Below are positions 26,349 to 26,540 of a DNA stretch of 64,000 bases, one piece after another; position 1 is the first letter of the stretch; the number at the start of each line of letters is the position of its first letter. The notes below the pieces were generated by a model. That model made no database searches and had not been told where the DNA came from. It was given only the letters and a program-made list of their open reading frames with translations. This DNA is from Escherichia coli (GTDB taxonomy: Bacteria > Pseudomonadota > Gammaproteobacteria > Enterobacterales > Enterobacteriaceae). The stretch lies in NCBI RefSeq assembly GCF_041886205.1, contig NZ_CP169029.1; one strand, 5' to 3'. A program made the translations under genes and the position numbers.

Positions 26349-26540
26349 GCTGTTATTGCCGGATGCGGCGTGAACGCCTTATCCGACCTACACAGCACTG
26401 AACTCGTAGGCCTGATAAGACGCGCAAGCGTCGCATCAGGCAATGCTGTTATTGTCGGATGCGGCATGAACGCCTTATCCGACCTACACACAGCACTGAA
26501 CTCGTAGGCCTGATAAGACACAACAGCGTCGCATCAGGCG
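26349..26540. repeat. Tandemly duplicated BIME (paired REP units), two copies of about 97 bp
   Basis: ...ggatgcggcgtgaacgccttatccgacctacacagcactgaactcgtaggcctgataagac...gcgtcgcatcaggc occurs twice in direct succession. Confidence 0.85.

Follow-up and report, generated by a model that had tools for sequence, protein, structure and literature searches.

The repeat between pepA and holC in the 64,000-nt stretch of Escherichia coli DNA analyzed here (contig NZ_CP169029.1 of RefSeq assembly GCF_041886205.1, referred to below as the window) is a BIME-2 of the E. coli REP family, an ordinary two-unit Y/Z2 array. We have high confidence in the explanation taken as a whole, in which this identity is joined to a probable origin by contraction and to a putative function read by analogy with the rest of the family. 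BIME-2 arrays, their Y/Z2 architecture, and their copy-number variation between strains have been known since the 1990s, and nothing in the pepA-holC array departs from the known family. The result is therefore of low importance in itself, and its practical value lies in annotation.

Identity and anatomy of the array

The pepA-holC spacer measures 257 nt (26335-26591) and is filled by the array, which is wholly extragenic. Upstream lies pepA, encoding leucyl aminopeptidase (24823-26334, plus strand; a 503-aa ORF whose TAA stop codon ends at 26334, named from the RefSeq annotation of matching genomes), and downstream lies holC, encoding the chi subunit of DNA polymerase III (26592-27035, plus strand; a 147-aa ORF, likewise named from RefSeq). 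holC overlaps the start of valS at 27035, and all three genes are co-directional on the plus strand. Within the spacer, the repeat that self-alignment was expected to reveal was reproduced both by Tandem Repeats Finder (26340-26539, period 98, 2.1 copies, 91% matches, 1% indels, score 333) and by ungapped repeat finding, which returned two families of direct repeats, spaced 96 and 98 nt apart and reaching 26337-26561. A regular-expression search for REPs gave the order Y(+), Z2(-), Y(+), Z2(-) across the array, and parsing into modules delimited a unit A at 26346-26441 (96 nt) and a unit B at 26442-26539 (98 nt), each consisting of one Y REP on the plus strand and one Z2 REP on the minus strand.

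An earlier note on this DNA had proposed a REP array at this site with a pair of inverted REPs in each unit, and the four Y/Z2 REPs and the flanking genes annotated in RefSeq bear this out. Its bounds of 26349-26540 hold to within a few bases, the start falling 3 nt inside the first linker, and its unit length of 97 bp is the mean of two real units of 96 and 98 nt. The description of the units as near-identical, however, did not survive alignment: units A and B agree at 89 of 98 positions (90.8%), with seven substitutions and one 2-nt indel between them, and are no closer to each other than the window units are to those of E. albertii, E. whittamii, and other lineages (88-92% identical). The class of the array (BIME-2, Y/Z2), the truncated REP remnants at both of its borders, and the existence of REP-free alleles had been left out of that description.

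Read from left to right, the spacer opens with a border (26335-26357) made of a 9-nt Z2-tail remnant, GCGTCAGGC, and a tail-to-tail linker, AAGGCTGTTATT; remnant and linker begin 3 nt past the pepA stop codon and align with the internal Z2 tail and linker at 26433-26453. The first complete REP (PU 1; 26358-26391, plus strand, GCCGGATGCGGCGTGAACGCCTTATCCGACCTAC) is a 34-nt unit of the Y type which, as parsed by the regular expression, equals the published Y at 33 of 35 positions, and a short head-to-head linker of 14 nt, ACAGCACTGAACTC (26392-26405), separates it from PU 2, a 36-nt Z2 unit on the minus strand (26406-26441) with the loop variant GCGCAAGC and 36 of 37 positions in common with the published Z2. 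A tail-to-tail linker of 12 nt, AATGCTGTTATT (26442-26453), leads to PU 3, a second 34-nt Y unit on the plus strand (26454-26487, GTCGGATGCGGCATGAACGCCTTATCCGACCTAC; 31 of 35 positions), and from there a head-to-head linker of 16 nt, ACACAGCACTGAACTC (26488-26503), leads to PU 4, a 36-nt Z2 unit on the minus strand (26504-26539) with the loop variant ACACAACAGC and agreement at 34 of 37 positions. The right border (26540-26561) is formed by a 13-nt linker, GCTGCGGTGTATA, and the truncated tail of a fifth REP, CCTGATGCG; the repeat family extends to 26561, and the same border is found in E. albertii, E. whittamii, and other Escherichia. Outside the repeat, the last 30 nt before holC (26562-26591, plus strand, TATTTAAATCCACCACAAGAAGCCCCATTT) form a conserved leader that is present in both the BIME and the REP-free alleles of E. 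coli.

Types were assigned by comparing the units with published references for Y, Z1, and Z2 (PMC11208160). All four REPs end in CCTAC (GTAGG on the other strand), so that the GTAG/CTAC foot is kept, and every predicted REP hairpin contains the internal loop produced by the stem mismatch. The REP pattern matched 15 times in the window, where 50 shuffles gave 0.02 matches on average, and a 656-nt query around the array hits 5,425 of the 5,426 complete E. coli genomes, at a median of 37 places in each, as belongs to a dispersed family. Other REP pairs in the window lie at 40085-40172, 50055-50138, 53182-53265, and 59422-59506; one of these is a Z1/Y pair (BIME-1-like) and three are Y/Z2 pairs.

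The published definition of BIME-2 describes z2 and y REPs in multiple tandem copies, with a short S linker between them and s, l, or r sequences at the flanks. The palindromic units here are of the Y and Z2 types, the minus-strand units measuring 36 nt as against about 29 nt for Z1; they alternate in orientation, head-to-head and then tail-to-tail (+, -, +, -), across linkers that are short in both positions (14 and 16 nt head-to-head, 12 nt tail-to-tail); and they stand in tandem copies whose number varies between strains, with two units in the window and one to four in other E. coli or Escherichia. The extragenic location and the GTAG foot and stem mismatch in all four units agree with BIME-2 as well. 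BIME-1 elements also pair inverted REPs that include a Y unit, but they combine Y with Z1 in a single copy around a long L linker with an IHF site. We rejected this class on the grounds of the 36-nt Z2 partners, the 12-16 nt linkers, the tandem repetition, and the lack of an IHF consensus, WATCAANNNNTTR, for which neither strand of the array gave a match, which excludes the BIME-1 L motif.

Among known arrays, REP325, a BIME-2 between yjdM and yjdN, is likewise extragenic between co-directional genes, variable in copy number between strains, and built on the GTAG/CTAC foot and the stem mismatch. The two differ in size, with four REP units at pepA-holC and 12 in REP325, and the 12-nt tail-to-tail linker given above is unlike the REP325 linker in the Rfam model. 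A full-text literature search on pepA, holC, and REP returned nothing specific to this locus. The MG1655 RefSeq record contains no repeat_region feature in the pepA-holC spacer, and REP341 is located after valS, not in this spacer.

Allele variation and the origin of the window allele

The earlier note had stated that copy number varies between strains and had proposed counting BIME units across them; the count was carried out and does show such differences, with one, two, three, and four units seen. For a survey of the spacer we used a 500-nt query of the unique flanks alone, sampled the resulting ranking of 5,425 genomes at regular intervals to obtain 59, and read the number of units in each length class from representative sequences. 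Three units in a spacer of about 354 nt (353-355) were found in 27 of the 59 genomes (46%), and two units in a spacer of about 257 nt (257-260), the class of the window, in 13 (22%). A spacer of 159 nt with one Y-Z2 unit was found in four (7%), which are K-12 derivatives, and a REP-free spacer of 132-133 nt in the remaining 15 (25%). By exact search, 1,406 of the 5,426 complete E. coli genomes (25.9%) have the REP-free allele, and the agreement of this count with the 59-genome sample validates the sampling. The REP-free allele of 133 nt (carried, for example, by E. coli WP5-S18-ESBL-07, at positions 551-683 of the locus) has a different palindromic repeat, whose core reads CCCTCTCCCTAAGGGAGAGGG. 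The 57-nt core of the allele is dispersed in its turn, at a median of 13 places in a genome and 24 at most. We take this repeat to be boxC-like, as a tentative name. A BoxC family does exist in E. coli, according to a paper that gives no sequence.

Comparison of these alleles suggests that the window allele arose by contraction, in a series from three to two to one unit, which is the more parsimonious reading of the sequences. The three-unit allele of strain AR_0086, each of whose flanks departs from the window at a single position in 550 nt, has the order Y1-Z2a-Y2-Z2b-Y3-Z2b, and the window has Y1-Z2a-Y2-Z2b. Removing a 98-nt frame from the AR_0086 spacer, at any point in a range of 70 positions, yields the window spacer exactly, and a range of this width is the signature of a loss between 69-nt perfect direct repeats. 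Strain S1 has a two-unit allele (Y1-Z2a-Y3-Z2b) that results when another stretch of 98 bp is taken out of the AR_0086 allele, and K-12 (Y1-Z2b) corresponds to the window allele shortened by 98 bp. The AR_0086 allele cannot come from the window allele by simply doubling one of its units: Y3 (loop GCGTGAGC) was not copied from Y2 (loop GCATGAAC), so that growth from two units to three would take two Y-loop substitutions on top of a duplication. The loss may have come about by slippage or by unequal recombination between the 69-nt repeats; TnpA-REP, which cleaves and recombines BIMEs in vitro, would be one route to a change in copy number beside slippage. The direction of change is read from parsimony over a handful of alleles, and recombination between alleles could blur it. 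The allele of PK8276 has a different order of Z2 variants.

The earlier note had instead called the array a tandem duplication. A recent duplication of one 97-bp BIME in this strain, in which a K-12-like ancestor with one unit was doubled, would account for the single unit of K-12 at pepA-holC and for a window spacer equal to the K-12 spacer plus 98 bp, and BIME-2 arrays must originally have formed by tandem amplification. However, the units of the window differ at 9 of 98 aligned positions, as much as units do between Escherichia species, which marks them as old paralogues, not fresh copies. Doubling the K-12 unit cannot yield the window allele, as neither Z2a (loop GCGCAAGC) nor Y2 is a copy of a K-12 unit. 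The exact derivation of the window allele from AR_0086 by a 98-bp deletion also weighs against a doubling, as does the standing of three-unit alleles, which are the commonest class in the E. coli sample and occur in E. albertii too. We thus consider a recent duplication quite improbable and prefer contraction from three units.

Mean identity between units was 0.938 within arrays, 0.903 between arrays, and 0.908 in the window's own array. Concerted evolution is not claimed here, since the overall signal is weak and is absent for the window array. Over 6 kb, no complete genome exceeded 99.3% identity to the window, and strain E275a, although 100% identical over the central 656 nt, shows 38 mismatches over 3.6 kb (24673-28273), clustered in pepA at 25017-25041 and in valS. 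These comparisons suggest that the region around the spacer is a recombination mosaic.

One allele is interrupted by an insertion sequence. In strain CUVET20-416, IS621 is inserted in the pepA-holC array, where it splits the second Z2 REP precisely at its GTAG|G head, the element occupying positions 1467-3003 of the locus and its transposase CDS positions 1746-2726. IS621 belongs to the IS110 family and uses a bridge-RNA recombinase, and the insertion point matches its published natural target, ATCAGGCCTAC (PMC11208160). The series of alleles with no REP, one, two, or three units, or an IS621 insertion offers a natural set in which the tuning of tandem gene pairs by REPs can be tested.

Age of the array and the spacer in other genera

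A scan of species-representative genomes with a degenerate pattern for the HolC N-terminus recovered 99 loci, and the spacer could be delimited in 92, with lengths of 64-455 nt (median 122 nt). E. albertii has three units, E. whittamii two, Escherichia sp. MOD1-EC7003 one, and the representative labeled E. coli SCPM-O-B-8794 four, and all of them have a common left border beginning TTGCATCAGGC and a common right border ending ACCTGATGCGTATTTAAATCC. The sharing of borders across Escherichia species indicates that the array predates E. coli.

Beyond Escherichia, several Citrobacter species have REP types of their own in the pepA-holC spacer, in various orientations, and in Salmonella diarizonae the spacer is 98 nt long and contains a single degenerate palindrome. 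In Pseudocitrobacter, as in a few further genera, the spacer holds copies of a repeat of the form CCCTCTCCC...GGGAGAGGG, which is of the same type as the repeat in the E. coli REP-free allele. Judged by these sequences, palindromic repeats have settled in this spacer again and again across genera. The last ~30 nt before the holC ATG, which correspond to the leader at 26562-26591, share 90-100% identity with their counterparts in Citrobacter, Salmonella, and other genera, and everything upstream of them has been replaced. The segment may be a holC leader, a ribosome-binding region, or a promoter element.

Putative function of the array

By analogy with other members of the family, the array at pepA-holC most likely acts as an intercistronic hairpin barrier and partial attenuator, and as a gyrase site. 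The predicted fold of the plus-strand spacer RNA has an energy of -108.2 kcal/mol (z = -7.2 relative to shuffled sequences) and gives each REP a stem-loop of its own. A supplementary table (bioRxiv 10.64898/2026.03.23.713779) lists pepA:holC:valS under "Affected_genes" for a bidirectional terminator downstream of valS, which hints that the three genes are co-transcribed. The array would then be transcribed as the intercistronic part of a pepA-holC-valS transcript, in which four stable hairpins could block 3'-to-5' exonucleases and so protect the pepA segment, and in which the hairpins could also cause a partial, Rho-dependent attenuation, so that less read-through reaches holC. In the DNA itself, the Y units would be preferred sites of binding and cleavage by DNA gyrase, and the Z2 heads, which carry ATCAGGCCTAC, would be targets of IS621. 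The expected outcome would be that PepA is favored over the low-abundance chi subunit, with copy number modestly scaling the effects.

Several published results bear on such a model. Deletion of REP325 showed protection of the upstream mRNA and a ~8-10-fold attenuation downstream that is partly Rho-dependent, and tandem gene pairs that contain REPs have a raised ratio of upstream to downstream expression genome-wide; the same study found REP effects to be context-dependent and mRNA half-lives not to be uniformly changed by REPs (bioRxiv 10.64898/2026.03.23.713779). Cleavage sites of gyrase are over-represented in BIME-2, where y REPs are preferred (PMC6379681).

About 26% of E. coli genomes are REP-free at this site, so any function of the array is dispensable. 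A comparison within an operon is offered by the intercistronic REPs of malE-malF, which Newbury and colleagues reportedly described in 1987 as an mRNA-stabilizing barrier. Like the array here, these lie between an abundant upstream product and low-abundance downstream genes in an apparent single transcription unit. They differ in that the stabilizing role at pepA-holC is putative and that the first full REP here stands 23 nt after the stop codon. REPs within ~15 nt of a stop codon can reportedly depress upstream translation as well (Liang, Rudd, and Deutscher 2015), and at 23 nt from the pepA stop codon such a depression is not expected.

It is conceivable that the spacer works as a natural expression dial, with settings of zero units (and a different repeat), one, two, or three units, and in a few strains IS621, within an apparent pepA-holC-valS transcript, that fixes the ratios of PepA to chi and ValRS in a lineage. 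If so, these ratios would shift without any change to promoters or coding sequence. We regard this as a speculative and rather unlikely extension of the barrier and attenuator role.

With four GC-rich hairpins directly 3' of the pepA stop codon, the array might instead be thought to be the intrinsic (Rho-independent) terminator of pepA, leaving holC-valS as a separate transcription unit. But no U tract follows any of the hairpins, scans of the plus strand of the spacer found neither intrinsic-terminator-like nor sigma-70-like sites, the latter including the stretch between the array and holC, and the grouping of pepA, holC, and valS in the supplementary table described above points the other way. 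An intrinsic terminator is accordingly very improbable, and an intercistronic barrier with partial attenuation remains the reading we prefer.

The tail-to-tail pair PU 2/PU 3 matches the Rfam family naRNA4 (CssrE; RF02564) at 26409-26484 on the minus strand with 82.2 bits against a gathering score of 59.5, both the sequence and the two-hairpin structure of the family being matched, and naRNA4 has been described as a Y-linker-Z2 RNA from the BIME-2 array REP325 (PMC4550694). The array might on this basis encode a functional naRNA4-like RNA that binds HU and organizes the nucleoid. The match is, however, antisense to pepA-holC, and on the plus (sense) strand the model scores 51.9 bits, below the threshold. 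In the direction of transcription the order here is Z2-linker-Y, the opposite of naRNA4. The model also matches two further Z2/Y tail-to-tail pairs in the window (53185-53262 and 59425-59503), above the gathering score on the minus strand, and the one-unit (K-12) and REP-free alleles are without the Z2/Y tail-to-tail module altogether. The nucleoid function proposed for naRNA4 is itself contested, as deletion or overexpression of REP325/naRNA4 leaves nucleoid compaction unchanged (bioRxiv 10.64898/2026.03.23.713779). To judge by these matches, the model recognizes a generic BIME-2 module and not an sRNA gene, and we see only a slim chance that the array encodes a functional RNA of this kind.

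Finally, although ORFs of 67 aa on the minus strand (26318-26521, from the ORF list) and 45 aa on the plus strand run through the REPs and the repeats are regularly spaced, there is next to no chance that the array is a protein-coding gene or a CRISPR-like array, since the minus-strand ORF is 57, 67, or 99 aa long according to copy number and missing from the REP-free allele, neither ORF has a Pfam match, and the would-be CRISPR spacers are just 12-16 nt long and themselves repeated, between repeats that alternate in orientation. The earlier note had likewise set aside a coding or CRISPR-like nature and had been correct that the predicted 67-aa ORF exists and is spurious.

Annotation and other features of the window

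For annotation, the region is best masked as a REP array, with no gene call for the 67-aa ORF and with the naRNA4 match treated as generic BIME-2. Another Rfam match, to the Yersinia antisense sRNA Ysr276 (25381-25575, minus strand, 174.7 bits), runs antisense within pepA; the most likely reason for it is that the pepA coding sequence is conserved, not that an sRNA gene lies there. Elsewhere in the window, a magnesium riboswitch (RF01056, 125.8 bits; 43022-43137, minus strand) and a tRNA gene (19285-19366, minus strand) are ordinary features. Upstream of pepA, the divergent spacer between pepA and lptF (locus positions 2744-2856) is annotated in K-12 MG1655 with two very small proteins, YtgB of 18 aa and YtgA of 16 aa.
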